A stretch of 64,000 bases of DNA, taken from an uncultured Alcaligenaceae bacterium. Its GTDB lineage: Bacteria; Planctomycetota; Planctomycetia; Gemmatales; Gemmataceae. Within the stretch, counting starts at the first letter, position 1. Every line of letters starts with the position of its first letter. Location of the stretch: the NCBI GenBank assembly GCA_964444365.1, contig CAYUHJ010000009.1:5880-69879 (forward strand), in the 5' to 3' direction. Shown in pieces: positions 8,756-32,594 of this stretch. The notes below the pieces were generated by a model, which made no database searches, was not told where the DNA came from, and saw only the letters and a program-made list of their open reading frames with translations. The translations under genes and the position numbers were made by a program.

Positions 8756-9169
8756 TCACTTCCCGGCGTGGGCCACCATGTCCTGACACGCCTTCTGGCA
8801 GTCGCGGCAGGCCTTCGCGCACTGCTTCATGTGTTCGTCCTGCGGGTGCTTCTCACACGCGATCGCGCACTGCTCGCAGACCTTCGCGCAGGCGTCGCAA
8901 ATCTGCGCGGCATAGGGCCCGCCTTTCCCCACGATCTTCGCGGCGACGGCACACACGGCCGCACAATCCCCGCACGAGAGGACGGTGTCCTTGTGCTCCT
9001 TCTTCCCCTGAGCCACCATTTCCAGGCAATGTCGTTCGCACGTGTTGCAGGCCCGCATGCAATCGGTGCAGGCCTTCGCGCACTGCTCCATCACGGCGTG
9101 GTGCTCGTTGGCTTTCGACGGTTGGGCGGCGGACAGGCTCCATGCGGCCAGGGCTGCGAGTGCATACAT
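8756..9169 (-). CDS. Cysteine-rich four-helix-bundle copper-binding protein (DUF326/Csp-like) with an N-terminal signal peptide
   Basis: The ATG at 9169 gives MYALAALAAWSLSAAQP... There are 18 Cys in about 137 aa, arranged as repeated CxxxC/CxxC blocks (QCAKACTDCMRACNTCERHC, CGDCAAVCA, ICDACAKVCEQCAIAC, QCAKACRDCQKAC). Confidence 0.7.
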   Translation of the reverse strand: MYALAALAAWSLSAAQPSKANEHHAVMEQCAKACTDCMRACNTCERHCLEMVAQGKKEHKDTVLSCGDCAAVCAVAAKIVGKGGPYAAQICDACAKVCEQCAIACEKHPQDEHMKQCAKACRDCQKACQDMVAHAGK

Positions 9170-9287: not shown

Positions 9288-9677
9288 TTACGCCCGGCTG
9301 TTGGCGGCGCGGCCGAGGAGCAGGCCGACACCGAACCCGACGAGCAGGGCCGGAATCGGGTAGCGACGAACCATGTCGGTCACGTCCTTGCCGATGTCCT
9401 TGAGGTTGTCTTCGTACATGTGGCTGGCCCATTCGCCGGCTTGCCGCATGCCGTCCCGGGCGTCGTGCGCCCATTCGCCGGCCTTTTCCTGGGCCTTGCC
9501 GGCGTAGTCGGCGGCCGTGCTCGCGACCGACTGCGCCCGGTCGCGGACCGCGTCCACCACGTTGTGGGCGGCCCCTTGCGCGTTCTGCGCCCCGTTACCC
9601 GCCTGATCGGTCGCCTTCTTGGCCTGTTCGGCGGCGTGGTCGATCCCGGTCTTCACCTTGTCTTTCATGTCGGCCAT
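9288..9677 (-). CDS. Stress-type membrane-anchored protein (DUF883/ElaB/YqjD-like)
   Basis: Ala/Gln/Lys-rich helical N-terminus (MADMKDKVKTGIDHAAEQAKKATDQAG...) and a C-terminal anchor, RRYPIPALLVGFGVGLLLGR. Confidence 0.6.
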   Translation of the reverse strand: MADMKDKVKTGIDHAAEQAKKATDQAGNGAQNAQGAAHNVVDAVRDRAQSVASTAADYAGKAQEKAGEWAHDARDGMRQAGEWASHMYEDNLKDIGKDVTDMVRRYPIPALLVGFGVGLLLGRAANSRA

Positions 9678-9747: not shown

Positions 9748-11622
9748 TTATGCACGGCCCGTGCCAACGGCGGCGGGAACGGCCGTGCCTCGGGTGACGG
9801 GAGTCCCTCCCTGTACTTCGCTCACCTTCTGTTGAGATTGCAGCACCGAGAGCCAGGAAGTCAGTTGCGTCGCGGCCTCGTCCACGGACGTGTGGACGGA
9901 ATCCGCCCCCACGGCCGTAAGGTCCGTCTTCGCCTCGTCGAGTTCGTCGACCTGGCCCCACCGGCCGACCAGCAGTTTCAACTCGGGGAACCGGGCGTTG
10001 ACCCGCTTGCACAAGTACCGGGTGTGCGCCAGACCGCCGGGGGGGAGCGAGCTGACGCAGAGCACCGCGGGCCGGAACTCGGCGATCCGGGCGAGCAGTT
10101 CGGAAGTGAGCGTTTCGCTCGCCGCGACGTTGACTTCCCACTTGTCCGCGGGCAGCAGGCGGACCAGCATCCGAACGGCGACCTCGTCGGCCTCGTGACG
10201 GGCGGCGCAGGCCAGCACGCGGACCCGGTCCCCCTCGAACGAGATTCCGGCCCCGGACCCGAGCCCGGCCGCGTCGTCGGCGGTGTCCTCGGCGATCTCC
10301 CGGGTCGCGGCGAGGATGAACTTTTCGTCCCCGGGTTCGAGTTCGCCGTCCGCCGCCGCTTGCTGGGTCATGGTCAGGGCCGGCACGAAGACCGTGTCAC
10401 ACGTGACCCCGAAGGCCTTCTTCGCCGCCGCGCCCTCGGCCACCCGGGCCGCCTCGTCCTGGTCCCGGGCCGCGAGCCGCTGGAAGAACATCACCCCGGG
10501 TTCGAGCGGCGGGGAGTCGCCGAGCAGAATGTCCAGGAACTGCAACTGCGGGACGTACTTCCCGAGGACCACCAGACAGGTCGTCAGCGGGCCGGACAGG
10601 ATCAGCCCGATCGGCCCCCACAGGAACGACCAGAACGCCGCGGCCATCAACTGGGCCACCTCGGACATCCCCAGGCTGGCCCCGTAGAGCCACGGCTCGA
10701 AGACGTTGTTGCAGACCAGTTCCAGCGTGACGAAGAAGGCGAGCACGACGAGCGGCTCCGCGAACCCGTCCGTCGTGGCGAGCGAGAACAGCACCGGGGG
10801 GATGACGCCGATCCACGTTCCGATGTACGGCACGTACCGCATCAGGGTGGCCAGAAACCCCCAGAGCAGGGCGTACTCGACCCCCAGGATCAACAGCCCG
10901 ATCGAGATCACGACCCCGAACGAGGCGTTCAGGATCAGTTGCGTCAACAGATACCGGCTGATCCGCCGGGAGGCGTCGTCGACGGCCTTCGTCGCCTGGG
11001 TCACCCGGCCGTGGGCGATCACCCGGAGCAGGCGGTTCCGCAGGTCTTCCCGCTTCAGCAGCATGAACACGACGAGCACGAAGGCGAACGCGGCCTGCCC
11101 GGCGACCTCGGCCGCCAGCCCGGCCACCGGCTCGATGCGGGTCATCCACGACGTCGGCTGTTCGACGACCAGCTTCGGGGGCTCAAGGGGCGAGCCGGTC
11201 GGGGCCGGGGCGGCCGGCGGGGCAATGGTCTGCTGGATCTCGCCGAGGAACTTCAGCATCCGGCTCTCCCCGCCGCCCGCCCACTCGCGGACGGTGGTGA
11301 TCTTCCCCTTGATCCGTTCCGCGTTGTCCGGAAGGGTGCGCATCAACCCGGCGAGTTGCTGCCCGAGAACCCACCCGGTTCCGACTGACGCCAGGCCGGT
11401 CGCCGTCATCACGAGGAGGACGGCGGCGACCCGCGGCACCCGGCGACGTTGCAGGGCGTTGACCAGCGGCGCGAGCACGAAGGTGAAGAACACCGCGAGC
11501 GCGACCGGGATCAGGATCGCCCGGCCCCAGTAGAGCACGCCCACCAGAACGGCGGCGATGGTGACGGCGGACAGGGCGACGAGGGCCCGTTGCCAGTCCG
11601 GGCGGAAGGTGACGCGGGTCAT
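9748..11622 (-). CDS. AI-2E (PerM/YhhT) family permease fused to a C-terminal cobalamin-binding-like module (helical cap plus Rossmann B12-binding fold)
   Basis: About 360 aa of polytopic permease come first. FFQRLAARDQDEAARVAEGAAAKKAFGVTCDTVFVPALTMTQQAAADGELEPGDEKF is like the B12-binding_2 cap. RVRVLACAARHEADEVAVRMLVRLLPADKWEVNVAASETLTSELLARIAEFRPAVLCVSSL...LKLLVGRWG is like the B12-binding Rossmann fold. The canonical DxHxxG is not intact (RHEADE). Confidence 0.65.
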   Translation of the reverse strand: MTRVTFRPDWQRALVALSAVTIAAVLVGVLYWGRAILIPVALAVFFTFVLAPLVNALQRRRVPRVAAVLLVMTATGLASVGTGWVLGQQLAGLMRTLPDNAERIKGKITTVREWAGGGESRMLKFLGEIQQTIAPPAAPAPTGSPLEPPKLVVEQPTSWMTRIEPVAGLAAEVAGQAAFAFVLVVFMLLKREDLRNRLLRVIAHGRVTQATKAVDDASRRISRYLLTQLILNASFGVVISIGLLILGVEYALLWGFLATLMRYVPYIGTWIGVIPPVLFSLATTDGFAEPLVVLAFFVTLELVCNNVFEPWLYGASLGMSEVAQLMAAAFWSFLWGPIGLILSGPLTTCLVVLGKYVPQLQFLDILLGDSPPLEPGVMFFQRLAARDQDEAARVAEGAAAKKAFGVTCDTVFVPALTMTQQAAADGELEPGDEKFILAATREIAEDTADDAAGLGSGAGISFEGDRVRVLACAARHEADEVAVRMLVRLLPADKWEVNVAASETLTSELLARIAEFRPAVLCVSSLPPGGLAHTRYLCKRVNARFPELKLLVGRWGQVDELDEAKTDLTAVGADSVHTSVDEAATQLTSWLSVLQSQQKVSEVQGGTPVTRGTAVPAAVGTGRA

Positions 11623-11740
11623 GGTCCGGGGTCCTGACGGTGCCGGCGCGGGATCGCGCGGGTCGCGAGGGACGGAGCAACCGAAGTGCCACCGCGGGGA
11701 CAGGCCGTTCCGGGCCGCGTGCGGGCGAGCGGTTCGCCCC

Positions 11741-11756
11741 TGGCACGCCGCGTGCT
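11741..11756 (+). promoter_or_regulatory. Sigma54-type -24/-12 promoter candidate
   Basis: TGGCACGCCGCGTGCT versus the consensus TGGCACG-N4-TTGCW: one mismatch, correct GG-N10-GC spacing. It is intergenic, 46 nt upstream of the ATG at 11802. Confidence 0.5.
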
Positions 11757-11801: not shown

Positions 11802-12035
11802 ATGAAATACACCGGAATCGCCCTGCTCGTTCTGGGCCTGGGGATGGCGCTGTTCGGCGGTCTTTCTGCGGTCGCGCAGGCCGACTCCGTCGATAGCCGG
11901 CCGACAGACATGATGATCGGCAACATCCTGGTGCCGGTCGCGTTCGGGCTGATGGTCGGAACCGTCGGGGCGGCGATGTACTTCTACGGCGGGCGGGGGT
12001 ACATGCAGACGCGGAACCCCGCGGTGAGAAATTAG
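11802..12035 (+). CDS. Small two-TM membrane protein (77 aa, possibly DUF3185-like)
   Basis: The ATG at 11802 gives MKYTGIALLVLGLGMALFGGLSAV...ILVPVAFGLMVGTVGAAMYFYGG. Codon third positions are GC-rich and a sigma54-like promoter precedes it. Confidence 0.55.
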   Translation: MKYTGIALLVLGLGMALFGGLSAVAQADSVDSRPTDMMIGNILVPVAFGLMVGTVGAAMYFYGGRGYMQTRNPAVRN

Positions 12036-12163: not shown

Positions 12164-13384
12164 TCAAGCGGATGGGTCACGTTCTTCGTCCGGGGGTTCA
12201 TCCCCCGGACGGTCTTTTCCGGCGAGCGGGAGGCGGACCACAAAGGTTGCCCCCAACCCGATCCCGTCACTGGCCGCGTCGATCGTGCCGCTGTGGAGTT
12301 CGACGAGCCGCTTGGCGAGGGCGAGGCCGATCCCGAGCCCGCCGTCGGTCCGGTTCAGGTTCCGGTCGACCTGGGTGAACAGTTCGAAGACGTGGGGCAG
12401 TGCGTCCGGGGGGATGCCGACGCCGGTGTCCCGTACCCGGACCGCGGCGTGGGAACCGTCTTGCGCGGCGGTCACCCGCACGTCCCCTCCGGACTCCGTG
12501 TACTTGGCCGCGTTGTTCAGCAGATTCGCGAACACCTGCGCCAGCCGGACCCGGTCCCCGCTCACCCAGATGGGGTCCGTCGGCAACTCTACGGCCAGCC
12601 TCAACCCGGCCTTGGTGAGTGCGGGGGTGCTCGCTTCGACGGCCACCTCGATCGGCTCGGCGAGGGACAGGCGTTCCTTGGTCAGCCGGAGTTTCCCGCG
12701 GGTGATGCGGGACACGTCGAGCAAGTCGTCGATGAGCCGGACCATCTGGCGGATCTGGCGGTCCATGATCTGCCGGGCCTGGTCGCCGGCGGCGGGGTTG
12801 GTCCCGCCGAGCCGGAGGATTTCCAGCGCGTTGCGGATGGGCGCGAGCGGGTTCCGCAGCTCGTGGGCGAGGGTGGCCAGGAACTCGTCCTTGCGGCGGT
12901 CCCCCTCGACGAGTGCCGCGTTCGCCCGGGCGAGTTCGGCCGTCCGCTCCCGGACCTGCTGGGCGAGGTCGGCCTCGTACCGCTTGCGGAGGAGGGCGTA
13001 CCGGACGGCCCGCTCCAGCAGGGTGGCGTCGAGCTTGCCCTTTTCCAGGTAGTCGTCGGCCCCGGCGGCGGCGGCCGCGAGGTCGATCTCCGACGCCGAC
13101 TGCCCCGTCAGCAGAATGATCGCGGCCGTCGACCCGGCCGTCCGGACTTCCGCCAGGAGGTCGAGCCCGGTCTTCGGCCCGAGCCGGTAGTCGAGCAGAC
13201 ACACGTCGTGCTGGCCGGCCAGGACGGCGGTCAGCCCGGACTCGTAGTCCGGTGCCCAGTCGAGCTTGTACCGGTCGCCGCGGATGTCGGCGAGCAGGTC
13301 CCGCGTCAGGACGTAGTCGTCGCGGTCGTCGTCGATCAGGAGCACCCGGACCGGGGGGCTACCGGGTAGGCTGTTCATCGACAT
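12164..13384 (-). CDS. Hybrid histidine kinase (REC-HisKA-HATPase_c)
   Basis: Receiver: VRVLLIDDDRDDYVLTRDLL...DVCLLDYRLG. H-box: FLATLAHELRNPLAPI. N/G boxes: NLLNNAAKYT and DTGVGIPP...GGLGIGLALAKRLVELHSG. Confidence 0.85.
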   Translation of the reverse strand: MSMNSLPGSPPVRVLLIDDDRDDYVLTRDLLADIRGDRYKLDWAPDYESGLTAVLAGQHDVCLLDYRLGPKTGLDLLAEVRTAGSTAAIILLTGQSASEIDLAAAAAGADDYLEKGKLDATLLERAVRYALLRKRYEADLAQQVRERTAELARANAALVEGDRRKDEFLATLAHELRNPLAPIRNALEILRLGGTNPAAGDQARQIMDRQIRQMVRLIDDLLDVSRITRGKLRLTKERLSLAEPIEVAVEASTPALTKAGLRLAVELPTDPIWVSGDRVRLAQVFANLLNNAAKYTESGGDVRVTAAQDGSHAAVRVRDTGVGIPPDALPHVFELFTQVDRNLNRTDGGLGIGLALAKRLVELHSGTIDAASDGIGLGATFVVRLPLAGKDRPGDEPPDEERDPSA

Positions 13385-13820
13385 GGTCGGGCAGCTCCAC
13401 GATCTCCAGCCAGTACCGACCGATGGTCCGGATAACTTCGACGAGGGCGTCGAACGTGACCGGCTTGGCGATGTACGAGGCGGCGGAGAGGTCGTACACG
13501 CGGAGGACGTCTTCCTCCGCCTTGGACGTGGTCATGATGATGATGCGGATCGCCCGGAACCGGGGGTCGGCCTTGATCTCGGCCAGGGCCTCGCGGCCGT
13601 CCTTCCGCGGCATGTTCAGGTCGAGCAGGATGATCCCTGGCCGGGGAGAGCTTGCCGGGTCCGCATACCTCCCGCGGCGGTTGAGATAGTCGAGCAGCTC
13701 GACCCCGTCCTCGACGAACCGCAGGTCGTTCGCCAGTCGGGCCTCCTCGAAGGCTTCTCGCGTCAGCGCCCGGTCGTCGGGGTCGTCGTCCGCGACCAGG
13801 ATCGTGATCGGCTTCGTCAT
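13359..13820 (-). CDS. Stand-alone response-regulator receiver protein
   Basis: The ATG at 13820 gives MTKPITILVADDDPDDRALTREAF...ILLDLNMPRKDGREALAEIK...IIIMTTS...SYIAKPV. No output domain is present. Confidence 0.85.
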   Translation of the reverse strand: MTKPITILVADDDPDDRALTREAFEEARLANDLRFVEDGVELLDYLNRRGRYADPASSPRPGIILLDLNMPRKDGREALAEIKADPRFRAIRIIIMTTSKAEEDVLRVYDLSAASYIAKPVTFDALVEVIRTIGRYWLEIVELPDHVDEQPTR

Positions 13821-13839: not shown

Positions 13840-16227
13840 TCAGGCGGGGAGGTCGATGACGATCGTCGCCCCGGTGCCCGGAACGCCCCGGGCGGCGATC
13901 GCCCCGCCGTGACGTTCGACAATCTTACGGCAAATCGCGAGCCCGATCCCGCTCCCTTCGTACTCGGCCCGGCCCTGGAGCCGCTGGAACACCTCGAAGA
14001 TCCGTTCCGCGTAGGCCTGCTCGAAGCCGATCCCGTTGTCGGCGACGGTCACCCGCCAGACCGCACTGTCGGCCGGCAGCGGGGCGGCGTCGGCCGGGAG
14101 TTCGCCGACCCGGCAGGCCGACACCGTGACGACCGGGGGCACGTCCGGCTTGTGGAACTTCAGCGCGTTCCCGAGCAGGTTCACGAACAGTTGCCGGAAC
14201 TGGCCGGGGTCGGCGGCAGAGAGCGTCGGGAGCGGCCCGATGTCGATCCGGCCTCCGGTCTGCGCGAGGCGAATCTCCAGGTCCGAGACGGCGTCCCGGG
14301 CGACCTCGGCCAGGTCGACGGGCTCGAACGTCCTGCCCCGCGTCGTCACCCGCGACAGCGACAGCAGGTCGTCGATCAAGACCCGCATTCGGGCGGCCGA
14401 CGCCAGCATCCGGTCGAGGTACTCTTTCCCCTGGTCGCCGAGCTCGGCCCGGTACTTCTTCGCCAGCCGGTCGCCGAACGCCTGAATCTTCCGGAGCGGC
14501 TCCTGCAGGTCGTGCGAGGCGACGTACGCGAACTGTTCCAGCTCGGCGTTGCTCGACGCCAGCGCCTTTTGTTGCTCCGTCAGCAGTGCCGTCCGATCGC
14601 GGACGAGGGCTTCCAAGTGTTCCGCCTCCCGCTTCTGGTCGTCGATGTCGGTACACGTCCCCACCCATCGGGTGACCGCACCGGCTTCGTCCTTCTGCGG
14701 AACGCCCCGCACCTTGAACCACCGGTAGCGATCGTGCCGACTGCGGATGCGAAACTCCACGTCGTACGCCGCGGTTCCGGCCACGGCCTTTTCCCACACC
14801 CGAAGGGTCGGGTCGCGGTCGTCCGGGTGGAGGCTCTCGAGCCAGCCGAAGCCCAGGTGGTTCGCGACCGGCACGCCGGTGTACTCCACCCATTGCCGGC
14901 TGAGGTAGTTGCACTCCCCGGAAGGGGACGTGGTCCAGACCATCTGGGGCGTCGCTTCGGTCAGGGTGCGGAACAGTTCCTCGCTGGCTTGAAGTTCGGA
15001 CTGAAGTCGTTTGACCTCATCGATATCTGTGCAAGTCCCGAACCACTGAACTACGTCTCCGCGTTCGTCCCGACGGGGCACCGCGCGGCCGATGAACCAC
15101 CGATACCGGCCGTCTCGACCCCGGAAGCGGTATTCGATCTCGTAGGGCTCCCCGGTGTCGGTGGCAAGCTTCCAGCGGGCCTCTGCCCGGGCCTTGTCGT
15201 CCGGGTGGAGTGGCCCACTCCAGCCGAAGCCGAGGCTCTCTTCGACGCTCTGGCCGGTGTACTCGTACCAACGCTGGTTGTAGTATTCGTGGTATCCGTC
15301 GGAACGGGTCACCCAGACAATTTGAGGAACCGATTCACTCAACAGTCGGAAGCGAGCTTCGCTTTCTTCGAGGTCCAGGGCCGCTTGAATGCGGATCGCG
15401 GCGTCCCGCTGCAGTTCCAATTGAGACCGGGCAAGAGCGTCGTTCGATTCCCGCAACTCGGCTAGAGTCTGGGAAACTTGCCGGCGGGCGTTCCGCTGCG
15501 CCTCTCCGAGCAACCCGACGGCGATCCCGCAAAACAAGAATGCCCCGGTGGCGATCTGATCCCGCGCCGCCGGAAGTTGCATCGTGCCACGGGGTTCGAT
15601 GAAGAAGTACACGGTCCCGACCAGCGTCCCGAGAAGGGTCAGCAGCGCGGGTCCGAACCCCCACCGCCACGCGAGGTAGACGACCGCCGTGAGCGGCAGG
15701 ATGTACAACTTTTCCCAGTCCAACAACGGGTCCAGCAGCGACCGGACGGCCAAACTCACGGCGATTGCGAGTACCGCCACAATGTACGCCGGTGCGCGAG
15801 CGTCCGACCACTCGTGGGGAACGGTGGGGGATCGGGGTTCGACCAGGCCCCGGTGGTCGACGAGCGCGAGCACCTTGGGGACCGCCGGGATCAGGGCCAC
15901 CACCGTCCCCCACGAGACGACCGCCGTGACCAGTTTCACGAGCCCCCCGAGCCGGTAGGCGGGGTAGTCGAACATGAGGGCTTCGAAAAAGTGGGTGAAG
16001 CCGCACGCGAGAATGAATGCCCCGAACAGCCAGAACAGGTGGTGGAACGGCAGCCCCCGCCGCTGCCGGGCGAAAAACCCGAGAACCACTGGGATAGAGA
16101 GGTACGCGAGCCAGATCAGCAGGTCGGACCCCCGGTGGAGCCAGATCAACCCCGTCGTCCAGTCGCCGCACGTTTTCCGGGGCACGAACCCGTCCGTGAC
16201 GAAGAGGTGGCGGAAAAACTCGAACAT
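13840..16227 (-). CDS. Membrane sensor histidine kinase: ethylene-receptor-like N-terminal TM domain, DUF4118-like TM block, two PAS domains, HisKA, HATPase_c
   Basis: N-terminus: GSDLLIWLAYLSIP...FGAFILACGFTH...KLVTAVVS (see findings). PAS-like: VWVTRSDGYHEYYNQRWYEYTG and MVWTTSPSGECNYLSRQWVEYTG. H-box: FAYVASHDLQEPLRKI. ATPase: NLLGNALKF...DNGIGFE...GSGIGLAICRKIVERHGG. Confidence 0.85.
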   Translation of the reverse strand: MFEFFRHLFVTDGFVPRKTCGDWTTGLIWLHRGSDLLIWLAYLSIPVVLGFFARQRRGLPFHHLFWLFGAFILACGFTHFFEALMFDYPAYRLGGLVKLVTAVVSWGTVVALIPAVPKVLALVDHRGLVEPRSPTVPHEWSDARAPAYIVAVLAIAVSLAVRSLLDPLLDWEKLYILPLTAVVYLAWRWGFGPALLTLLGTLVGTVYFFIEPRGTMQLPAARDQIATGAFLFCGIAVGLLGEAQRNARRQVSQTLAELRESNDALARSQLELQRDAAIRIQAALDLEESEARFRLLSESVPQIVWVTRSDGYHEYYNQRWYEYTGQSVEESLGFGWSGPLHPDDKARAEARWKLATDTGEPYEIEYRFRGRDGRYRWFIGRAVPRRDERGDVVQWFGTCTDIDEVKRLQSELQASEELFRTLTEATPQMVWTTSPSGECNYLSRQWVEYTGVPVANHLGFGWLESLHPDDRDPTLRVWEKAVAGTAAYDVEFRIRSRHDRYRWFKVRGVPQKDEAGAVTRWVGTCTDIDDQKREAEHLEALVRDRTALLTEQQKALASSNAELEQFAYVASHDLQEPLRKIQAFGDRLAKKYRAELGDQGKEYLDRMLASAARMRVLIDDLLSLSRVTTRGRTFEPVDLAEVARDAVSDLEIRLAQTGGRIDIGPLPTLSAADPGQFRQLFVNLLGNALKFHKPDVPPVVTVSACRVGELPADAAPLPADSAVWRVTVADNGIGFEQAYAERIFEVFQRLQGRAEYEGSGIGLAICRKIVERHGGAIAARGVPGTGATIVIDLPA

Positions 16228-16310: not shown

Positions 16311-16326
16311 TGGCGCGCCGCTTGCA
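16311..16326 (+). promoter_or_regulatory. Sigma54-type -24/-12 promoter candidate upstream of the NtrC-family activator
   Basis: TGGCGCGCCGCTTGCA versus the consensus TGGCACG-N4-TTGCW: one mismatch, correct GG-N10-GC spacing. It is about 70 nt upstream of the ATG at 16397 and has the same CCGC spacer as the 11741 site. Confidence 0.5.
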
Positions 16327-16396
16327 GGCAAATCTTCGCTCAGCAGGAAGCACGCTGCGTGCTCTCGAGAATCCCCCCGCCCGGGTCGAGCCGCTC

Positions 16397-17824
<1,428 letters not shown>

Positions 17825-18831: not shown

Positions 18832-19212
18832 TTAGTAGCGGCCGCCGCCACCGCCACCGTACCCGCCGCCACCGCCGCCGTACCCGCCGCGGCCGCCGCC
18901 ACCGCCGCCGTACCCGCCGCGGCCGCCGCCACCGCCGCCGTACCCGCCGCGGCCGCCGCCACCGCCGCCTTCACGCGGCTTGGCTTCGTTGACGGTGAGC
19001 GGCCGACCGTCGAGTTGCGCGCCGTTCATGGCCGCGATCGCTGCATCCCCGCCGTCGCTCATTTCGACGAAAGCGAACCCGCGCGGGCGGCCGGTCTCCC
19101 GGTCCATGATGACCTGCACCTTCGTGACGGTGCCGTACTGGGAGAACACCTCCCGCAGCGTCGCCTCGGTCGTGGAGAAGGCCATGTTTCCGACGTACAA
19201 ATTCGTAGCCAC
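18832..19212 (-). CDS. RRM-type RNA-binding protein with a Gly/Arg/Tyr-rich tail
   Basis: The GTG at 19212 gives (M)ATNLYVGNMAFSTTEATLREVFSQYG (RNP2) and RGFAFVEM (RNP1), followed by a (GGGGGGRGGY)n tail. Confidence 0.85.
   Translation of the reverse strand: MATNLYVGNMAFSTTEATLREVFSQYGTVTKVQVIMDRETGRPRGFAFVEMSDGGDAAIAAMNGAQLDGRPLTVNEAKPREGGGGGGRGGYGGGGGGRGGYGGGGGGRGGYGGGGGGYGGGGGGRY
18871..18960. repeat. Three perfect tandem copies of a 30-bp unit inside the RNA-binding-protein gene
   Basis: accgccgccgtacccgccgcggccgccgcc at 18871-18900, 18901-18930 and 18931-18960. A degenerate copy lies at 18841-18870. The unit encodes GGGGGGRGGY. Confidence 0.95.
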
Positions 19213-19353
19213 GGTCGTGGTCCTCGGTGGCCCCGGAGGGCCGGTAGATTCACCGGGCAGACATCTGCCCGCGCTCATCGTACCCGCCCCGCCGCGAACC
19301 GCTACCTTATTCGTGCTACGATTCTGCGATTGTGCTGCGGGCCGAATTCCGAC

Positions 19354-20247
19354 TCACCGGGGACCGTCTCGGTGTTTGGCGTGGCACGAGGTGCAGGACT
19401 TGTGAATTCCTGCGAAGGATTCGGCGATCGCCCCGGCATCTTTGCCCGCCAGGGCCCGCTCGAAAGTCCGCCCCAAGCCTTCACTTTCCCGGAAAGCCGC
19501 GTGCAACCGGGCGTTCGCGGCCACCGCCGGAAGCCGTCCCGCCTCCCGGAAGTGTTCGACGATTTGCACCGCGTCCTCGGCGGAGTCGTTCGGCGACGGC
19601 CAGCCCTTCGCCTGTGCGGCTTTCAGCGAATCCCAGTGCTCGTCCACGCGGACCATCAGCCGGGTCAGGGTCGGAACCGCCGCGGTGTCCGGGAAGTCCG
19701 CCGGCGTCCGGGCCAGCTCCTCGGCCGACGGGCGGGTGAACGTCCGCGGGATCGCGACCAGCCCCCGATACCGCGGGTCGGTGCCGGCCTCCCGCATCCA
19801 CGCTTCCGCGCGAGCTGGCGTGAACCCCGGTTCGAGAGCGAGCAGCGCGCACGAAGCCGCCGCCGGCCCGCGGTGCATCCCGTGATGGCAATGAACGTAC
19901 ACCGGCCCCGGCAGCTCCCGCACGGCCTTCACGATGGCGAGGGCTTTGTCCCGCGAAATGCCGTCGTACCCGATCGGAACGTGAACGTACCGGAGCCCGT
20001 GTTTCTTCGCCCCAGTCACATCCGGCACCGCGCCGTCGACGGAAAGAACGGTCCGCACCCCGAGCTGGCGCAGAGACGCGAAGCCGGCGTCGCCCTCCGG
20101 ACTGCCGCCGCTGAAGACCCGATCGCCGATGCGGAAGACGTTGTGCAACCCGGCCGCCCCGACTCGCACCGGGGTCGGCGGCGGGTCCGGCGGGGCCCGC
20201 CAACACCCCACTGCGACGGCCAGGATCACGGGAATCAGATACTTCAC
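19354..20247 (-). CDS. Exported or anchored fusion protein: PTP/DUF442-like phosphatase domain plus a C-terminal cytochrome c'-like four-helix heme domain
   Basis: The GTG at 20247 gives (M)KYLIPVILAVAVGC (signal/anchor, possible lipobox). PTP loop: VYVHCHHGMHRGPAAAS (HCx5R). C-terminus: ...AIAESFAGIHKSCTSCHAKHRD, with a CxxCH placed as in cytochrome c'. Confidence 0.6.
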   Translation of the reverse strand: MKYLIPVILAVAVGCWRAPPDPPPTPVRVGAAGLHNVFRIGDRVFSGGSPEGDAGFASLRQLGVRTVLSVDGAVPDVTGAKKHGLRYVHVPIGYDGISRDKALAIVKAVRELPGPVYVHCHHGMHRGPAAASCALLALEPGFTPARAEAWMREAGTDPRYRGLVAIPRTFTRPSAEELARTPADFPDTAAVPTLTRLMVRVDEHWDSLKAAQAKGWPSPNDSAEDAVQIVEHFREAGRLPAVAANARLHAAFRESEGLGRTFERALAGKDAGAIAESFAGIHKSCTSCHAKHRDGPR

Positions 20248-21875
20248 CGCAAGCCTCGGACGCAATCTCGGATCACGACGCACAGGCTCACCCACGCCGT
20301 CCCGAGTAAGCCGGATGCCATCACGTCCGTCGGCCAGTGGACGCCGAGGTAGACCCGGGTCCACCCCACGCCGACGGCTGCCGCGACGAGCCCGAGCGCT
20401 GCCGGCCACGTCCACCACGCCCATCTCCGCGACAGCAGCACGGCGACGAACGCCCCGGCGAGGCCGACCGCGCGAAGGGTGTGCCCGCTGGGGAAACTAT
20501 ACTCGCCGATCGCCGTCAAGGCGTCGGCGGGGGCCGGGCGGGTGACGGCGTACCAGGATTTCGCAACGAGTTCGATCGCCACGGTGCCGAGCATGGCGGC
20601 GAGGAACAGCACCCCGGCCGACCGGTGCCGGCGCAGGAACGCCACGACCGCGGCCGCGACGCCGATGAAGACCGCCGGCCCGCCGCCCCCGAGCGTGGTG
20701 ACCGCGTTCGCGAACGAATCGAGTGCCGGCGTCGCCGCGGACCGGACGTCGGCCCGCACTGCGAGGTTCCAGTCGTCCCACCGGCCGGCGGTCACGCCGG
20801 TGGCCAGGACCGCGAACTCGCACAGGCACAGAACCGCGAGCAGGAGGGTGAACAGCGTGGCGGACGGCCCCGACCGGAGGACGTTCAAGACGCCCGCGAC
20901 GACGCCGAACAGCCGTCGCCCGAGGTCGCCGAACCGCGTGTTCCCGACCCACCCGAGCCGCGGCGACCGCCGGTACCCCGGCCCGACGTACACCCGGACC
21001 GCCCGCGGGACCGCCGCGAACGTGAACCGTTTCCCCTCGACGAGTTCGCCGTCGAAACTGAGCGGCAGCGGTTCCTCGGCGGTGAGCTCGACCCGCTTCG
21101 CCCGGCGGTGCGTGACGTTGTCGTCGGTGACGTAGTCGCCGGCGAGCAGGCGGGCCGCGATGACGCCCTGGTCCAGCGTGGAGTCGACGGCGTGAACCAG
21201 CACCACGTCGAGCCGGCCGTCTTCCGGGTCGGCCCGCGGGGCGACGACGTACCCGCCGGCCGCGGTGCGAGCGTTCGCGACGACGATGTTGAGCACGTCG
21301 AGCGTTTCCGTCTGCTTCCCGTCGTACCGAAGGGTCACGCGGAACTTCGGCGGATCGGCGATCGTCCCGGCGGCCCCGCGGAGGTACGCCAGCGGCCCCC
21401 ACGCGGCCTTCAAGTCGGACGTCACCTCCGCCGCGACCTTCCCGCTGAACCCGCCGGTCGCGACGTTCGCCAGGAACCCGGACCAGTCGCCGTCCACGCG
21501 GACCGCGTCGACCCCGCGGGTCCGGTTCCGCTTCAGCAGCCCGACCGCCTCGACCGGGTCCAGCGGCACGGCGAGCGTCCGGCAAAAGTCGTTGCCGGTG
21601 CCGAGCGGAAGGAGGAGCAGCGACACCCGGGGAAAGTCCGGGCCGAGGGCGTTGACGACGCCGTGAATGGTGCCGTCGCCCCCGGCGACCGCCAGCACAT
21701 CCACGCCGGCCTTGAGAGCCGCCTGCACCTGTTCGCGCAACTCCCGCTCCGGATCGACGGACACGAGCGACACGCCTGGGGTCGCTGCGAGCGCGGCGCG
21801 GACGGCCTCACCCTGTCCGGCGGACCCGGCCTTCGGGTTGAGCAGCAAGGCGAAGCGCAACGGTTTCATGGGCAT
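20244..21875 (-). CDS. Fusion of a diacylglycerol/lipid kinase catalytic domain (YegS/LCB5-like) with a membrane PAP2 phosphatase
   Basis: N-terminus: LLLNPKAGSAG...LAVAGGDGTIHGVVNAL...LPLGTGNDF. C-terminal TM region carries the PAP2 motifs AVTRP, SFPSGHT and RVYLGVHWPTDV. The stop overlaps the GTG of the downstream gene (GTGA at 20244-20247). Confidence 0.8.
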   Translation of the reverse strand: MPMKPLRFALLLNPKAGSAGQGEAVRAALAATPGVSLVSVDPERELREQVQAALKAGVDVLAVAGGDGTIHGVVNALGPDFPRVSLLLLPLGTGNDFCRTLAVPLDPVEAVGLLKRNRTRGVDAVRVDGDWSGFLANVATGGFSGKVAAEVTSDLKAAWGPLAYLRGAAGTIADPPKFRVTLRYDGKQTETLDVLNIVVANARTAAGGYVVAPRADPEDGRLDVVLVHAVDSTLDQGVIAARLLAGDYVTDDNVTHRRAKRVELTAEEPLPLSFDGELVEGKRFTFAAVPRAVRVYVGPGYRRSPRLGWVGNTRFGDLGRRLFGVVAGVLNVLRSGPSATLFTLLLAVLCLCEFAVLATGVTAGRWDDWNLAVRADVRSAATPALDSFANAVTTLGGGGPAVFIGVAAAVVAFLRRHRSAGVLFLAAMLGTVAIELVAKSWYAVTRPAPADALTAIGEYSFPSGHTLRAVGLAGAFVAVLLSRRWAWWTWPAALGLVAAAVGVGWTRVYLGVHWPTDVMASGLLGTAWVSLCVVIRDCVRGLR

Positions 21876-21896: not shown

Positions 21897-23723
21897 TCAC
21901 GATCGGCCGCGTAAATCCACGGTGGCGTCGACCACGGCCACGGAACGGTCGACCTTCTTCGCGGAGCGAATGCCCGACGACAGTAAGACCGCGTCTGGGC
22001 GGGCCGCCCACCATTCGGCCGCGCAGTCCGCGTTCCAGTCCGAGGCACACGCGCAGTCCGCCAGCGCCCGCTTCAGGCTCGCCGCGTCCGGGTAGCGTGC
22101 CCCCGGCGCTTTGGACAGACACCGCAGCACCACGGCTTCCAGGTCCGCGGGCACGTCCACGCCGCGGCGGGACGGCGGCACGACGGGCTCCTTCGTGTGG
22201 GCCACGATCTGCTCCAGGATCGTGTGGCCGTCGAACGGCGGGCGACCAGTCAGCAGAAAGTATGCCACGGCCCCGAGGGCGTACAGGTCGCTCCGGGCGT
22301 CGGACACGCCGCCGAGGAGTCCCTGTTCCGGGGCCATGTACGCCGGGGACCCGCTGATGCTCGCGGACTCGGCCGGTTCCTCGCCGCCCGAAACTTGCCG
22401 GACGAGGCCGAAGTCGAGCAGTTTGGCCACGTCCGGCACGCCGCCGCGGGTCGCCGCGAAGATGTTCGCGGGCTTGATGTCGCGGTGAATCAGCCCCTTC
22501 TCGTGGGCCTCCCGCAACGCATCACAGACCTGTGATAACAAATACACCGCCCGCCCCGGCGGCATCGGTCCATCCATTCGGACGAGGTCCGCGAAACTTA
22601 ACCCGGTGAGGAGTTCCATCACGTAGTAAAAGGTGCCGTCGTCGGTTCGCCCGTAGTCGTAAATCTCGACGGTGTTCCAGTGCGACAGCCGTGCGGTGGC
22701 CCGGACCTCCTTCTCGAACCGCGACACGGCTTCCGGGTCGGCGTCGATGCCGGGGCGGATCAGCTTGATGGCACAGTCGCGCTTGAGAAGTTCGTGTTCC
22801 GCTCGGTAGACCTCGCCCATGCCGCCGCTGCCGAGTTGTTCCTTGAGCCGGTACTGGCCGAACTTCTTCGCGCGAAAGACCTCCTTCCGGACCCCCGCGA
22901 TGTAGTGCGAGTAGACCATCCCTTCCAGCACCGCGAGCATCACCACCGGGAACGGCGTGCCGTGGTGCAGCGAGTCGAACGCCTCCTGCACCCGCGGTTC
23001 ATACAAGCCCAATAAGTATTGACTGAGGTAGGGTACACACCCCGCCGGGAACATGTATCGAAACGCCCGCTGCCAGGTGTTCGGGATGAGCAAGCCATAC
23101 GTGACGATGTTCAACACCCAGACCGCGTGGACGAAGTAGGCGTCCATGATGACGGTGGGGTATTCTCCCGCGCGGGCGCTCTGGACCATCAGCGCGCCCG
23201 GCATCAGGGTGATCTGCACCGCGACCGTGCCGAAGACGAGGAGTTCGATCCGCCGCAGCCACCGCATCGAGAGCGGCCGGGGGTTTCGCACCCGAACGAA
23301 GCAGAGCGATTCGATCAGGATGAACGCGAGCCGGGGGATCAGAAAGGGGTGCTGGGTCGTCGGGATCAGGGCGATGCTCATCGCCAGCGCGGTGACGAGC
23401 GATACGATCTGCAACCGGCGGCGGAGCAGGGCGGCGGTCTCGGCGTCGAACTCGTGGACGACGTTGTCCACCCGCACCTTCGGCGACGAGTCCCGCGGGA
23501 CCGGCGGCGGTGGGGTCGGCGGGTGCGTCGCGGCCATCGCGAGCAGGCGGTCGACCGGCACGGCCGGTGTGGACAGGAAACTCCCGGCCGCGTCGTGGGC
23601 GTGCAGCAGGGCGTCGACCTTCGCCCGCAAGGCCAGATCCTGGCACGCGGCGTCCAGGAACCGGCGGCGCGCGGCGGCGTCGGGTTGATCCAGCGCTTCG
23701 AGAAACAGCGACCGCTGGTTCAC
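21897..23723 (-). CDS. Ser/Thr protein kinase with a helical N-terminus, a multi-TM block and a C-terminal kinase domain
   Basis: GQYRLKEQLGSGGMGEVYRAEH...AIKLI...HRDIKPANIF...DFGL...GSPAYMAPE. The N-terminus SLFLEALDQPDAAARRRFLDAACQD is typical of planctomycete kinases. The GTG start at 23723 overlaps the Uma2 stop. Confidence 0.85.
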   Translation of the reverse strand: MNQRSLFLEALDQPDAAARRRFLDAACQDLALRAKVDALLHAHDAAGSFLSTPAVPVDRLLAMAATHPPTPPPPVPRDSSPKVRVDNVVHEFDAETAALLRRRLQIVSLVTALAMSIALIPTTQHPFLIPRLAFILIESLCFVRVRNPRPLSMRWLRRIELLVFGTVAVQITLMPGALMVQSARAGEYPTVIMDAYFVHAVWVLNIVTYGLLIPNTWQRAFRYMFPAGCVPYLSQYLLGLYEPRVQEAFDSLHHGTPFPVVMLAVLEGMVYSHYIAGVRKEVFRAKKFGQYRLKEQLGSGGMGEVYRAEHELLKRDCAIKLIRPGIDADPEAVSRFEKEVRATARLSHWNTVEIYDYGRTDDGTFYYVMELLTGLSFADLVRMDGPMPPGRAVYLLSQVCDALREAHEKGLIHRDIKPANIFAATRGGVPDVAKLLDFGLVRQVSGGEEPAESASISGSPAYMAPEQGLLGGVSDARSDLYALGAVAYFLLTGRPPFDGHTILEQIVAHTKEPVVPPSRRGVDVPADLEAVVLRCLSKAPGARYPDAASLKRALADCACASDWNADCAAEWWAARPDAVLLSSGIRSAKKVDRSVAVVDATVDLRGRS

Positions 23724-24963: not shown

Positions 24964-25518
24964 TCACGCCTCCATCTCACGATACAGCCACGCCCGCGCG
25001 AAGGCCCACAGCCGCTCCGCGGTTCGCTGCGAGAGGCCGAGGCAGTCCGCCGCTTGGGCGGACGTCAGGCCCGAGAAGTACCGCAACTGGACGAGTTGGG
25101 CCGCCTCCGCGTCTTCGGCGGCGAGCCGGGTCAGGGCCGCGTCGAGGGCCACCAGATCGACCACCCCCTCGTCCGTGGCGGCGTGGACCTCGTCGAGTGG
25201 GACGCGAGTTCGGCCGCCGCCGCGCTTGAGGCTGTGCTTCTTCCGGGCGTGGTCGACCAGGATCCGCCGCATGGACTCCGCGGCGGCGGCGTAGAAGTGG
25301 CCGCGGTGACTCCACGAAACGTCTTCGGCGGTGCCGACGAGCCGGAGGTAGGCTTCGTGGACGAGTGCGGTCGCGTTCAGCGTGTGGCCGGCGGATTCGC
25401 GGGCGAGGCGGAGGGCCGCCAGGCGGCGGAGTTCGTCGTACACGAGGGGAAGAAGTTGGTCGGCGGCCGCGCGATCGCCACCGTGAACGGCCGCCAGGAT
25501 TCGCGTGACATCGTCCAT
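24964..25518 (-). CDS. ECF-type RNA polymerase sigma factor (kinase-associated planctomycete/acidobacterial type)
   Basis: MDDVTRILAAVHGGDRAAADQLLPLVYDELRRLAALRLARE..LNATALVHEAYLRLVG, with region 4 LRYFSGLTSAQAADCLGLSQRTAERLWAFARAWL. Confidence 0.85.
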   Translation of the reverse strand: MDDVTRILAAVHGGDRAAADQLLPLVYDELRRLAALRLARESAGHTLNATALVHEAYLRLVGTAEDVSWSHRGHFYAAAAESMRRILVDHARKKHSLKRGGGRTRVPLDEVHAATDEGVVDLVALDAALTRLAAEDAEAAQLVQLRYFSGLTSAQAADCLGLSQRTAERLWAFARAWLYREMEA

Positions 25519-25530
25519 TGCTGACGACGA

Positions 25531-26901
25531 TTATAGCAACTCGTCGATCGGCTCCGGGTCGTCCAGGACCGGCACCGGCCGGCCGCTCGGATCCAGCAGT
25601 TGCAGCTTCGGGTCGATGCCGAGCACCTTGTACACCGTGGCGTGAATGTTCGACGGCGTCACCGGGCGGGATTTCGGGGCCGTTCCCTTGCTGTCCGTCG
25701 AGCCGACGATCTGCCCGCCCTTCACACCGCCACCGCCCATCAGGCAGAACATCGCGTCCCCCCAGTGGTCGCGGCCGGGGGTGCCCATGCTGCCGGCGGG
25801 TCCGCCGTTGCCGCCGTCGTTCATCTTCGGCGTGCGGCCGAACTCCCCGCACAGCATCACCAGCGTCGTGTCGAGCAGCCCGCGGTCGGCCAGGTCCGTG
25901 AACAGCGTGGCAACCAGCGCGTCCACCTGGGGGAGCAGCCGTTCGTAGCTCTTCTGCAAGTCCCAGTGGTGGTCCCACCCGCCGAGGTGAACCGTCACGA
26001 ACGTGGACCCGGCTTCGACCAGCCGGCGGGCCAGCAGCGTCGCCTGCCCCCAGCCGTTGCGGCCGTACTGGTCGCGGAGTTTCGGGTCTTCCTTCCCCAT
26101 GTCGAACGCCTTGCGGGCGACCGGGCCGGTGACGAAGTCGAACGCTTCCCCCGAGAACTTGTCCATCGCCTTCGTCGTCGGGTTGCCGTCGAAGCTGGAC
26201 TTTTGCTTGTCGAAGTGCCGGAGCAGTGTCCGCCGGTCGTCGAGCTTGTCGAGCGTCAGCCCGGACGCGAGGTTGAGGTTCCGCACCTGGAAGTTCGCGG
26301 GGCTCGGGTCGCCGCTGGCGAACGGGTCGTGCTGCACGCCGAGCATGTGCCCGCCGAAGTAGCCGGGGGTCAGCCCGACGCTCGCGGAGTGCGGCGTGGC
26401 GACGTGCCCCGGCATCCCCGCCACCCGCGGCCCGAATTCCCGGTTGACGATCGCCCCGATGCCGGGGAACTTTTGCGTGGTGTTCGCCCCGGACACGCCC
26501 ATGTCCTTGGTCGTGATCATCCGGTGCGCGCCGGCGAAGTGGTCGCCGGTCCCGTGGTGGAGCGACCGCACGACCGAGAACTTGTCCGTAACCCGTGCCT
26601 GTTTCGGGTACAGCTCGGTGACATCGAACCCCGGGACCGCCGTGCGGATCGGCTTCCACAGCCCGCGGTACTCGGCCGGCGCGTCCGGCTTCATGTCGTA
26701 CATGTCCATATGCCCCGGCCCGCCGTCGAGCCAGATCAGGATCACGGACGTGTTCTTTTTCTCCTTCCCGGACGCCTCGTTCGCGCGGAGGAGTTGCGGC
26801 AGGCCGACGCTCGCCAGCCCGGCGACGCCGAGTTGCAGGAAGCTGCGGCGATTCAGGCCGTCGCAGTACCGGCCCTGGGAACCGAGGTCGAGGCGGAACA
26901 T
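25531..26901 (-). CDS. DUF1501 (sulfatase-like) protein with a twin-arginine signal
   Basis: The ATG at 26901 gives MFRLDLGSQGRYCDGLNRRSFLQLGVAGLA...VILIWLDGGPGHMDMYDMKP...GGWDHHWD...GEFGRTP...GRDHW. The rest of ORF 25531..27543 is an artefactual upstream extension. Confidence 0.85.
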   Translation of the reverse strand: MFRLDLGSQGRYCDGLNRRSFLQLGVAGLASVGLPQLLRANEASGKEKKNTSVILIWLDGGPGHMDMYDMKPDAPAEYRGLWKPIRTAVPGFDVTELYPKQARVTDKFSVVRSLHHGTGDHFAGAHRMITTKDMGVSGANTTQKFPGIGAIVNREFGPRVAGMPGHVATPHSASVGLTPGYFGGHMLGVQHDPFASGDPSPANFQVRNLNLASGLTLDKLDDRRTLLRHFDKQKSSFDGNPTTKAMDKFSGEAFDFVTGPVARKAFDMGKEDPKLRDQYGRNGWGQATLLARRLVEAGSTFVTVHLGGWDHHWDLQKSYERLLPQVDALVATLFTDLADRGLLDTTLVMLCGEFGRTPKMNDGGNGGPAGSMGTPGRDHWGDAMFCLMGGGGVKGGQIVGSTDSKGTAPKSRPVTPSNIHATVYKVLGIDPKLQLLDPSGRPVPVLDDPEPIDELL

Positions 26902-26979
26902 GGCGGGATCCTGGGAGGGGACGAGTCGGCGGACTGGTACTGTCGCACACCACCGGCCGGGGGTCAAGCGACTGCTTCC

Positions 26980-27008
26980 TTGACACTTCGCCCCGGTCCT
27001 CGTCGAAT
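26980..27008 (+). promoter_or_regulatory. Sigma70-like -35/-10 candidate for the S46 peptidase gene
   Basis: TTGACA (26980-26985), a 17-nt spacer, then TCGAAT (27003-27008), about 33 nt before the ATG at 27041. Planctomycete promoter rules are poorly defined. Confidence 0.25.
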
Positions 27009-27040
27009 AACCACATCCCTTCTCACACCGGAACCCCACG

Positions 27041-29098: not shown

Positions 29099-29109
29099 GT
29101 GACACCCCC

Positions 29110-29643: not shown

Positions 29644-29767
29644 CGATTCCGCTTCGAGACTTGCAACGGCCCGAACTTCGGGTAAACTTCGAATTGCCTC
29701 CCGGTCCGCTTCCGCGGACGACTGTTGATCACGCTGCCCCGCCTTCCCCGCCGACACGGGTTCCCCG

Positions 29768-32401: not shown

Positions 32402-32418
32402 TGGAGTAAACTGGCACC

Positions 32419-32594
32419 ATGATCCGCATTACCTTCCCAACACCCGAAGCGAAGCGAGCCGCGCTCGGCAGCTTGCCGGGCGTTTCAGCTTCAAGAGTTT
32501 CGCCACCGGCGAAATGCTGGTGCCTGAAGAGGCGCTGGCATTTCTCGCCGTTGAGGGAGTTTCTTTCACCGTCGAGGGGCTAGTTGATTTGTAG
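32419..32594 (+). pseudogene. Small conserved-type ORF interrupted by a 1-nt frameshift near 32465-32470
   Basis: Frame A from the ATG at 32419 reads MIRITFPTPEAKRAALGS... and then turns to low-complexity text, stopping at 32581-32583. From about 32470 the other frame reads LAGRFSFKSFATGEMLVPEEALAFLAVEGVSFTVEGLVDL*, stopping at 32592-32594. Joined, the two parts resemble a small protein family I recall from cyanobacteria and planctomycetes (MIR.TF...ALG.LAGRFS...VPE.AL..L...G..F). Confidence 0.4.

Follow-up and report, generated by a model that had tools for sequence, protein, structure and literature searches.

A putative ethylene-type sensor kinase and its conserved signalling cassette in the planctomycete family Gemmataceae

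Could a free-living planctomycete perceive ethylene through a copper-holding domain of the kind known from plant receptors, and if so, which genes would the signal reach? This question is raised by a gene for a sensor histidine kinase carried by a stretch of 64,000 nucleotides of Gemmataceae DNA, hereafter called the window (contig CAYUHJ010000009.1, positions 5,880 to 69,879, of assembly GCA_964444365.1). The gene occupies 13840..16227 on the minus strand, and its open reading frame (ORF) encodes 795 amino acids, in which Pfam recognizes the succession ETR1_N, DUF4118, two PAS domains, HisKA and HATPase_c. A preliminary description, made by reading the letters, had proposed that the span 15853-16155, i.e. 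residues 25-125 of the kinase, is an ethylene-receptor-like domain. We regard it as fairly probable that the protein is a Cu(I)-dependent ethylene-type sensor kinase, whose signal would reach a sigma-54 regulon through a two-tier relay. The successive parts of this answer are not equally firm, and we take them in order from the outer face of the membrane to the target genes.

Judging from profile and alignments, the N-terminal ~125 residues are almost certainly homologous to the Cu(I)-dependent domain with which plant ETR1, cyanobacterial SynEtr1 and AzoEtr1 of Azospirillum bind ethylene. Residues 27-122 (15862..16149, minus strand), which include three transmembrane helices, cover positions 2-97 of the 97 positions of the Pfam profile ETR1_N (PF25487) with an E-value of 2.8e-35 and 120.9 bits, for a cut-off of 27. 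In the Pfam profile search the block falls in ETR1_N alone, with no unrelated transmembrane family matching these residues, as the preliminary description had expected. That description compared the kinase with a string of Arabidopsis ETR1; we replaced it by plant receptors taken from the protein database, those of Noccaea (P0178) and Camelina (P0177). Over its length the string proved to be identical to the Camelina ETR1-like protein and to differ from the Noccaea one only by I29V. By BLASTP, residues 1-140 of the window kinase and of P0178 share 32% identity over 110 residues (E 4e-15), and the alignment pairs D35 with D25 of ETR1, Y42 with Y32, I45 with I35, P46 with P36, I72 with I62, C75 with C65, H79 with H69 and K98 with K91. 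MAFFT multiple alignments reproduce every one of these pairs, so that the placing of C75/H79 on C65/H69 and of D35/Y42 on D25/Y32, initially made by eye, holds in pairwise and multiple alignments alike. The peptide, its numbering and the codons given for Cys75 (TGC, 16005-16003) and His79 (CAC, 15993-15991) are exact on codon reading; the codons of D35 and K98, also on the minus strand, are 16125-16123 and 15936-15934. The spacings had been read correctly too: 29 residues separate Pro46 from Cys75, as they separate P36 from C65 in ETR1, and the loop before helix 3 is three residues shorter, with 19 residues from His79 to Lys98 versus 22 in ETR1.

Ethylene binding by ETR1 reportedly requires D25, Y32, I35, P36, I62, C65 and H69, a result ascribed to Wang et al. 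in 2006. In the window kinase the putative copper ligands C75 and H79 align on Cys65 and His69 of ETR1 helix 2, and the residues that align with the other five, D35, Y42, I45, P46 and I72, are all present. A recent study likewise refers to “seven amino acids” needed for ethylene binding, citing them without a list (PMC11819568). Another feature of ETR1 is a polar pair, Asp25-Lys91, which connects helices 1 and 3 (PMC10266040); both residues of this pair are found here as D35 and K98. The lysine is invariant: it is present in 151 of 151 bacterial homologues from the database (95 + 56), in AzoEtr1 of Azospirillum brasilense Sp7, and in the window protein. More broadly, the complete set C20/W23/D35/Y42/I45/P46/I72/C75/H79/K98 is found in 115 of 153 bacterial homologues, and the window protein retains it.

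The structural prediction agrees with the alignments. AlphaFold2 (AF2), run on residues 1-134 with 51 homologues, returns the three long helices that the preliminary description had anticipated (25-55, 62-84 and 91-125), with a mean predicted local distance difference test score (pLDDT) of 92.9 and a predicted template modelling score (pTM) of 0.79. A positively charged loop, RQRRG, read from the sequence between helices 1 and 2, fits an N-terminus-out topology. No solved relative was detected by a sequence search with residues 1-140, nor by Foldseek with the AF2 model at E<=0.001. The domain is also constrained in evolution: compared with P0057, a full-length orthologue of 92% identity encoded at locus L082, its ratio of nonsynonymous to synonymous substitutions (dN/dS) is 0.097, on a par with the catalytic part, for a whole-protein value of 0.11. 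This indicates purifying selection on the binding domain.

A window of 67.6% G+C yields many long spurious ORFs in all frames, and one might ask whether the resemblance is a chance one between hydrophobic helices, or whether the ORF is a gene at all. However, the ORF begins at an ATG with GGAG just 5’ of it, has a third-position GC of 0.85 and a codon-position pattern normal for the genes of the window, and encodes nine Pfam domains in a sensible order. Together with the orthologue evolving at a dN/dS of 0.11 and with the profile E-value, these features exclude a chance or artefactual origin of the domain.

Ahead of helix 1 lies a conserved segment (residues 1-26; 16150..16227, minus strand), presumed to be periplasmic, which contains Cys20 (codon 16170-16168) and Trp23 (codon 16159-16161). 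Its pattern, LFDT-GF-PR--CG-WT, is conserved in bacterial homologues including AzoEtr1, where Cys20 and Trp23 occupy identical positions, and it is not obviously alignable with the segment of plant receptors that holds Cys4/Cys6, the cysteines that join the plant dimer by disulfide. Both residues are invariant in 74 of 74 representative bacterial homologues, a conservation equal to that of the copper ligands. The single conserved Cys20 sits 15 residues N-terminal of Asp35; it was paired with a plant cysteine in one MAFFT run and left unpaired in another. A role of this segment in forming a dimer disulfide or in loading copper is possible.

How would such a domain work? By homology with ETR1, a single Cu(I) would be bound among the three transmembrane helices, its ligands being Cys75 and His79 of helix 2, with the assistance of Asp35 of helix 1. 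Ethylene or a similar small unsaturated ligand would bind the copper, and the Asp35-Lys98 bridge would relay the event to helix 3, as described for ETR1 (PMC10266040). Binding of Cu(I) and ethylene by the window kinase is thus a prediction from homology. Copper might be held while the physiological signal is something other than ethylene—copper availability, redox state, another alkene, CO, an isonitrile or NO—an alternative that we judge unlikely, though the most serious of those considered. Gemmataceae live freely in soil and freshwater and are not plant partners. Besides, several paralogues coexist in one genome, with three loci in the metagenome-assembled genome JAIEMG01 and two proteins in Urbifossiella limnaea, which resembles a general-purpose input module. 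Finally, a homologue of copper storage proteins is encoded ~4.7 kb downstream on the same strand (8756-9166, minus strand): this Cys-rich four-helix bundle of 137 amino acids matches Csp3 (PDB 5fig, E 2.7e-14) and Pfam DUF326, and begins with a short hydrophobic stretch, possibly a signal peptide. Yet a copper-storage gene accompanies the kinase in only 2 of 84 loci (83 plus L001, the AzoEtr1 locus), one of them being L082 with its 92% orthologue, and it is absent from L085 and L086, two loci that share the signalling genes described below; we therefore do not count it among the conserved components. Above all, every residue needed for ethylene binding by ETR1 is kept under purifying selection, and the bacterial homologues reported as tested, namely SynEtr1, other cyanobacterial proteins and AzoEtr1, do bind ethylene (PMC11819568, PMC6682694). 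For these reasons we retain ethylene as the favored ligand.

The preliminary description gave much weight to the domain on the presumption that it is rare. This does not stand: the domain has its own Pfam model, it is found in thousands of bacterial clusters, many of them from Planctomycetota, and a relative 46% identical has been tested. In a profile search covering 1.84 billion representatives of 50%-identity clusters, 10,765 matches were obtained at E<=0.001 and 5,251 at E<=1e-30. A scan of GTDB, with one genome per species and the single peptide pattern F[GA][ALV]FILACG, gave at least 566 stretches confirmed as relatives of the binding domain. The best 80 of these loci come mostly from Planctomycetota (Gemmataceae, Pirellulales, Isosphaeraceae, Kolteria, Aeoliella), the remainder from Bacteroidota, Verrucomicrobiota, Acidobacteriota, Myxococcota, Bdellovibrionota, Cyanobacteria and Pseudomonadota; the closest GTDB locus listed is 64-65% identical to the window kinase over the binding domain, and a look-up of the exact protein gave no existing record. 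Well over 100 relatives were found by full-length search, including proteins of Gemmata, Zavarzinella formosa, Urbifossiella limnaea and Fimbriiglobus. Most of them are already tagged PF25487 in precomputed annotation, and their source names say just “PAS domain S-box protein”. Within the window, a six-frame search with the hidden Markov model finds this binding domain as the only copy. It is well supported, then, that the window kinase is an added member of a large, curated and annotated family, and not a new type of sensor. The family also includes P0297, in which the binding domain is joined directly to a receiver (378 amino acids), and short binding-domain-like proteins of 155-233 amino acids as called, on contigs of up to 7.8 Mb (P0003, P0020, P0051, P0031).

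The literature is narrower than this distribution. The preliminary description held ethylene binding to be established for plant receptors and for Synechocystis, which is right for these and too restrictive as a full account, AzoEtr1 having joined them (PMC11819568). Its statement that no planctomycete system has been studied agrees with the searchable literature, in which we found no paper linking ethylene receptors or binding domains with planctomycetes; Papon & Binder 2019 and Carlew et al. 2019 lie outside that literature. Bacterial ethylene receptors are discussed there mainly for cyanobacteria and proteobacteria (PMC7700396). As to the host, its planctomycete origin had been recognized from the letters, and hallmark genes of the window bear it out: two DUF1501 genes and one PSCyt1-PSCyt2-PSD1 gene (25531-34618), together with a PF07638 ECF sigma factor (24964-25518), all usable as taxonomic markers, show that “planctomycete” is correct.

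What sets the window kinase apart is the way in which the binding domain is connected to the rest of the protein. The modules that had been read behind it were all found by Pfam, on the minus strand: a DUF4118 membrane block of four helices (residues 148-252; 15472..15786; PF13493, E 1.5e-15), two PAS domains (residues roughly 292-402 and 415-538; 14614..15354; PAS_3, PAS_4 and PAS, two stretches each), and a kinase core made of HisKA (residues 563-628, E 4e-11) and HATPase_c (residues 673-794, E 8e-20) at 13846..14541. Owing to the DUF4118 block, a KdpD-type kinase was considered. It was rejected: the Pfam scan contains no KdpD or Usp domain, and the NCBIfam KdpD model scores 85 bits versus a cut-off of 1123, on the kinase core only.

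In the AF2 model, helix 3 is followed by a low-confidence linker of ~16 residues (128-143, pLDDT near 50), then by the DUF4118 block, which runs on as one long helix into the PAS region. For residues 1-290 the pLDDT is 91.2 and the pTM only 0.59: the model thus shows two membrane modules, each well folded, that take up no fixed position relative to each other. Since helix 3 ends in a flexible linker and DUF4118, and not in a coiled coil, the signal would have to reach the DUF4118-PAS-PAS stalk laterally, inside the membrane, or by way of the dimer. Other members of the family are built differently. Among 74 representatives chosen solely by similarity of their binding domain, PAS occurs in about 50, HATPase_c in 46, a receiver in 28, GAF in 8 and DUF4118 in none; in their consensus, helix 3 leads directly into a coiled coil, as in AzoEtr1. 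The combination with DUF4118 appears in 7 of the best 80 of the at least 566 GTDB loci, all of them labelled Gemmataceae, Gemmata, Urbifossiella or Fimbriiglobus. Within the GTDB sample, this architecture is confined to Gemmataceae.

Closely related kinases with DUF4118 and PAS yet without the binding domain also exist (P0058, P0090, P0092, P0095, P0100), which suggests that the domain was added to an existing type of kinase. One may then wonder whether the added domain does anything more than anchor the protein, the kinase being governed by its PAS domains or DUF4118 and the ethylene-binding fold being mostly vestigial. The existence of these relatives, the floppy linker and separate four-helix bundle in front of the PAS stalk, and the loss of Cys75 or His79 in some paralogues would be understandable in that case. 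On the other hand the window protein retains the full residue set, its binding domain is constrained (dN/dS 0.097) as strongly as the catalytic part, and an anchor has no need of copper ligands or of an Asp-Lys pair; we consider a mere anchor improbable, clearly more so than a copper domain with another signal.

Another variation was noticed among the paralogues. Six full-length homologues of the Gemmataceae type have a cysteine in place of Tyr42, and five of the six have lost Cys75 (replaced by I, L, V, L, A) while keeping His79, Asp35 and Lys98. The proteins in question are P0098 (from Zavarzinella formosa), P0091, P0160, P0123 and P0125. In these homologues helix 1 may have taken over from helix 2 the cysteine that serves as copper ligand, and this could mark a variant binding site.

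We now turn to the output of the presumed sensor. The phospho-acceptor of the kinase is His572 (codon 14514-14512, minus strand), within the H-box SHDLQEPL that begins at residue 571; the N, G1 and G2 boxes are present as NLLGNA at 683, DNGIG at 730 and GSGIGL at 758. The closest solved relatives of this core, by PDB matches, are bacteriophytochrome kinases (E 1e-38). Only 19 nucleotides past the kinase stop comes a gene for a stand-alone receiver of 153 amino acids (13359..13820, minus strand; Response_reg), of the Rcp1/RcpA/RcpB type: its PDB matches are RcpB, RcpA and Rcp1 with E 1e-29 to 1e-30, and CheY with 1e-11. Since each partner belongs on the side of the phytochrome systems, kinase and receiver resemble cognate partners such as Cph1 and Rcp1. 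Next comes a gene for a REC-HisKA-HATPase receiver-kinase (406 amino acids; 12164..13384, minus strand), whose start overlaps the end of the preceding gene by 26 nucleotides and whose product has its H-box at residue 174. On the other side of the kinase, and divergent from it, is an NtrC-type sigma-54 activator (16397..17824, plus strand; 475 amino acids from its ATG, in an ORF that opens at 16310). It has the REC-AAA+-HTH_8 organization (Response_reg E 3e-25, Sigma54_activat E 8e-73, HTH_8 E 2.5e-8), a Walker A motif GETGTGKE and the loop GSFTGA. The preliminary description had named all three neighbors, and Pfam identifies them as such.

From these family assignments a relay can be drawn. 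Occupation of the copper site would change the autophosphorylation of His572, ethylene probably acting as an inhibitor by analogy with ETR1 and SynEtr1. Phosphate would pass first to the Rcp1-type receiver encoded 19 nucleotides downstream, and the receiver-kinase would form a second tier controlling the divergent activator, a role suggested by conserved synteny. Indeed the four-gene cassette—activator, kinase, receiver and receiver-kinase—is kept in four other loci: L082, whose kinase is the 92% orthologue, L083, whose kinase is ~50% identical, and L085 and L086, whose kinases of 1,275-1,326 amino acids have CHASE3, PAS and GAF instead of DUF4118. An orthologue of the activator, of ~70% identity and likewise divergent, adjoins the kinase in L031, L039, L042/L085, L061/L086 and L083. 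In total an NtrC-type activator stands beside a binding-domain kinase in 11 of 86 loci, which points to one orthologous sub-group; as a general trait of bacterial binding-domain kinases, the linkage was rejected.

If the relay ends at an NtrC-type activator, its target genes should have sigma-54 promoters, and candidates are found close to the cassette. The motif TGGCACTTCGGTTGC (11677..11691, minus strand) matches the consensus TGGCAC-N5-TTGC exactly and lies 55 nucleotides upstream of a gene whose product, of 624 amino acids, is a membrane protein of the AI-2E family that ends in a B12-binding-like domain (9748..11622, minus strand; PF01594 E 4e-49, PF02310 E 1.8e-6). This gene comes after the receiver-kinase gene in L082, L085, L086, L039 and L031, and in all five the core GGCA-N7-TTGC is found at the same place in front of it. 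A second motif, TGGCACGGGCCGTGC (9752..9766, minus strand), lies 75 nucleotides upstream of a gene for a 129-amino-acid protein with a C-terminal membrane anchor (9288..9677, minus strand), ElaB/DUF883-like by eye, which Pfam does not confirm. Here GTTGGCACG-N4-GTGCATAA has stayed unchanged across the window, L085, L086 and L039, amid flanks that have diverged. Orthologues of the 129-amino-acid protein (44-51% identity) are encoded directly after the AI-2E gene in L039, L042 and L061; a tail-anchored protein of ~130 amino acids comes next after that gene in L082, L085, L086 and L039, the sequence of L031 ending inside the AI-2E gene.

Two further motifs are tentative. One, TGGCACGCCGCGTGC (11741..11755, plus strand), for which the evidence is weaker, lies 47 nucleotides upstream of an ORF for a 77-amino-acid membrane protein (11802-12035, plus strand) that is called as a gene in L082. 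The other, TGGCGCGCCGCTTGC (16311..16325, plus strand), has one mismatch and lies 72 nucleotides upstream of the ATG of the activator; it is also present in L082, a relative too close for this to count as evidence. Altogether, four of the five motifs of the window are grouped at 9.7-16.4 kb, each correctly oriented and 47-75 nucleotides 5’ of a start codon. Motif conservation and synteny lead us to propose the NtrC-type activator as the end of the relay and these genes as its targets: we infer that it acts on the AI-2E-family and 129-amino-acid genes, whose sigma-54 promoters it would turn on, and probably on that of the 77-amino-acid gene.

Other sigma-54-like motifs were seen on the activator side of related loci, at 3060-7000 in L085, 2376-6700 in L086 and 6330-6344 in L083. 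They precede genes for small membrane or stress-type proteins (DUF1328, BrkB-like, Phage_holin_3_6, DUF883_C, DUF4142/DUF305), which hints at a regulon of envelope or stress proteins. A palindrome, GCACGC-N-GCGTGC, has two exact copies in the window: that at 11743-11755 overlaps a sigma-54-like motif, and that at 16350-16362, between kinase and activator, is without the GG of a -24 box. We considered it as a site for the activator and rejected it: across loci it mostly coincides with sigma-54 motifs, which are partly palindromic, and the intergenic regions of L083, L085 and L086 contain no equivalent. Scans of the window for Rfam families and for sigma-70 promoters and terminators added nothing. 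Farther from the cassette, two other loci deserve a mention. An RRM-domain RNA-binding protein (18832-19278, minus strand) has a glycine-rich C-terminal tail with repeated GGGGGGRGGYG, the opposite strand reading as Ala/Thr-rich repeats; and a Ser/Thr protein kinase (21897-23723, minus strand; Pkinase E 8e-40) adjoins a fusion of a diacylglycerol-kinase-like protein with a PAP2 phosphatase (20244-21875, minus strand).

Several of these observations weigh against a complete circuit from ethylene to sigma-54 promoters. First, 75 of the 86 binding-domain loci are without an adjoining NtrC-type gene, so that the proposed output would be that of a sub-group only. Second, the promoter motifs come from consensus matching: with one mismatch allowed, 5 are observed in the window versus 2.9 expected by chance. 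Third, the low-confidence linker and the second membrane bundle part the binding domain from the PAS-kinase portion (pTM 0.59); because of them the signal cannot be transmitted in the manner of ETR1 or AzoEtr1, and, going by the model, the binding domain might be only loosely coupled to the kinase. Fourth, close paralogues do without the binding domain or without Cys75. Weighing these points together with the evidence above, we still hold a Cu(I)-dependent ethylene-type sensor kinase acting through a two-tier relay on a sigma-54 regulon to be rather better than an even guess. In its most specific form, the proposal is that of a Gemmataceae-specific seven-helix ethylene sensor, where the copper/ethylene domain is tethered to DUF4118, feeding a two-tier phosphorelay whose end is an NtrC-type activator with a small set of sigma-54-dependent genes for membrane proteins; this we put forward tentatively, as a possibility somewhat short of even.

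What does the locus bring? Among bacteria, experimental proof of ethylene sensing is confined to cyanobacteria and, as of 2025, to Azospirillum; the present locus and census indicate that an intact binding domain is common in Planctomycetota and several other phyla. Knowledge of the binding domain itself is left unchanged by the window kinase. The additions are the DUF4118 architecture specific to Gemmataceae, the conserved cassette and the predicted sigma-54 targets. If the proposal is true, free-living planctomycetes would take ethylene as a cue from their surroundings, where it may arise for example from waterlogged soil, decaying biomass or the action of sunlight on dissolved organic matter, and this would be the first bacterial ethylene circuit beyond cyanobacteria and proteobacteria with a predicted transcriptional output. 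The Gemmataceae cassette offers a wiring that can be tested: a receiver of cognate type, a second kinase, an NtrC-type activator, sigma-54 promoters and named targets. It is thereby an entry point to the use of ethylene perception by bacteria that are not associated with plants, and to signalling from the binding domain without a continuous helix to the output.

The nearest characterized relative is AzoEtr1. Its ORF of 525 amino acids is located on plasmid p1 of A. brasilense Sp7, and starts with MFGGVEAF, the product of the cloning primer printed in PMC11819568. According to that study (2025), residues 1-130 of AzoEtr1 bind 14C-ethylene saturably, with D35A and C75A as binding-dead controls. 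Residues 1-122 align with the window kinase without a gap (46% identity, E 7e-27 by BLASTP), so that Asp35, Cys75, His79 and Lys98 bear the same numbers in both proteins. In addition, both have a PAS and HisKA/HATPase output, and both genes are directly followed by that of a stand-alone receiver. The differences are nevertheless substantial. In AzoEtr1 helix 3 continues straight to one PAS, whereas the window kinase interposes the linker and DUF4118 before two PAS; the two receivers are only generically similar (33% identity, E 2e-8); no receiver-kinase lies beside the receiver of AzoEtr1 within 2.5 kb flanks; and binding has been demonstrated by experiment for AzoEtr1, the window kinase being known from its sequence.

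Compared with the plant receptors ETR1 and ERS1, the window kinase shares the three-helix N-terminal domain, the seven binding residues, the Asp-Lys pair and the spacing of 29 residues between Pro and Cys. It differs by its overall divergence (32% identity), by the loop before helix 3, shorter by three residues, and by the bacterial Cys20/Trp23 segment standing where plants have Cys4/Cys6. Moreover, the plant domain is followed by GAF, and plant signalling goes mainly through CTR1 and not through phosphotransfer (PMC11819568). SynEtr1 (slr1212 of Synechocystis sp. PCC 6803) is closer in principle, as a binding-domain kinase that uses His-Asp phosphotransfer toward a transcriptional output (PMC11819568). 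As far as can be compared from its description, it differs by an additional light-sensing, phytochrome-like domain and by its targets, slr1213 and the small RNA csiR1.

For the downstream part, the models are to be sought elsewhere. The kinase core, with its SHDLQEPL box, and the 153-amino-acid receiver are most similar to the Cph1-Rcp1 and bacteriophytochrome pairs; the input of these pairs is a bilin-binding PAS-GAF-PHY module, unlike the copper/ethylene-type membrane domain of the window kinase. The end of the presumed relay recalls the NtrB/NtrC circuits: an activator of the REC-AAA+-HTH_8 type with its GSFTGA loop is encoded beside presumed kinases, and TGGCAC-N5-TTGC motifs precede neighboring genes. 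In contrast to these circuits, the window cassette has two kinases and an extra stand-alone receiver upstream of the activator, and, in place of nitrogen-assimilation genes, it would act on those of an AI-2E-family protein and of small membrane proteins.

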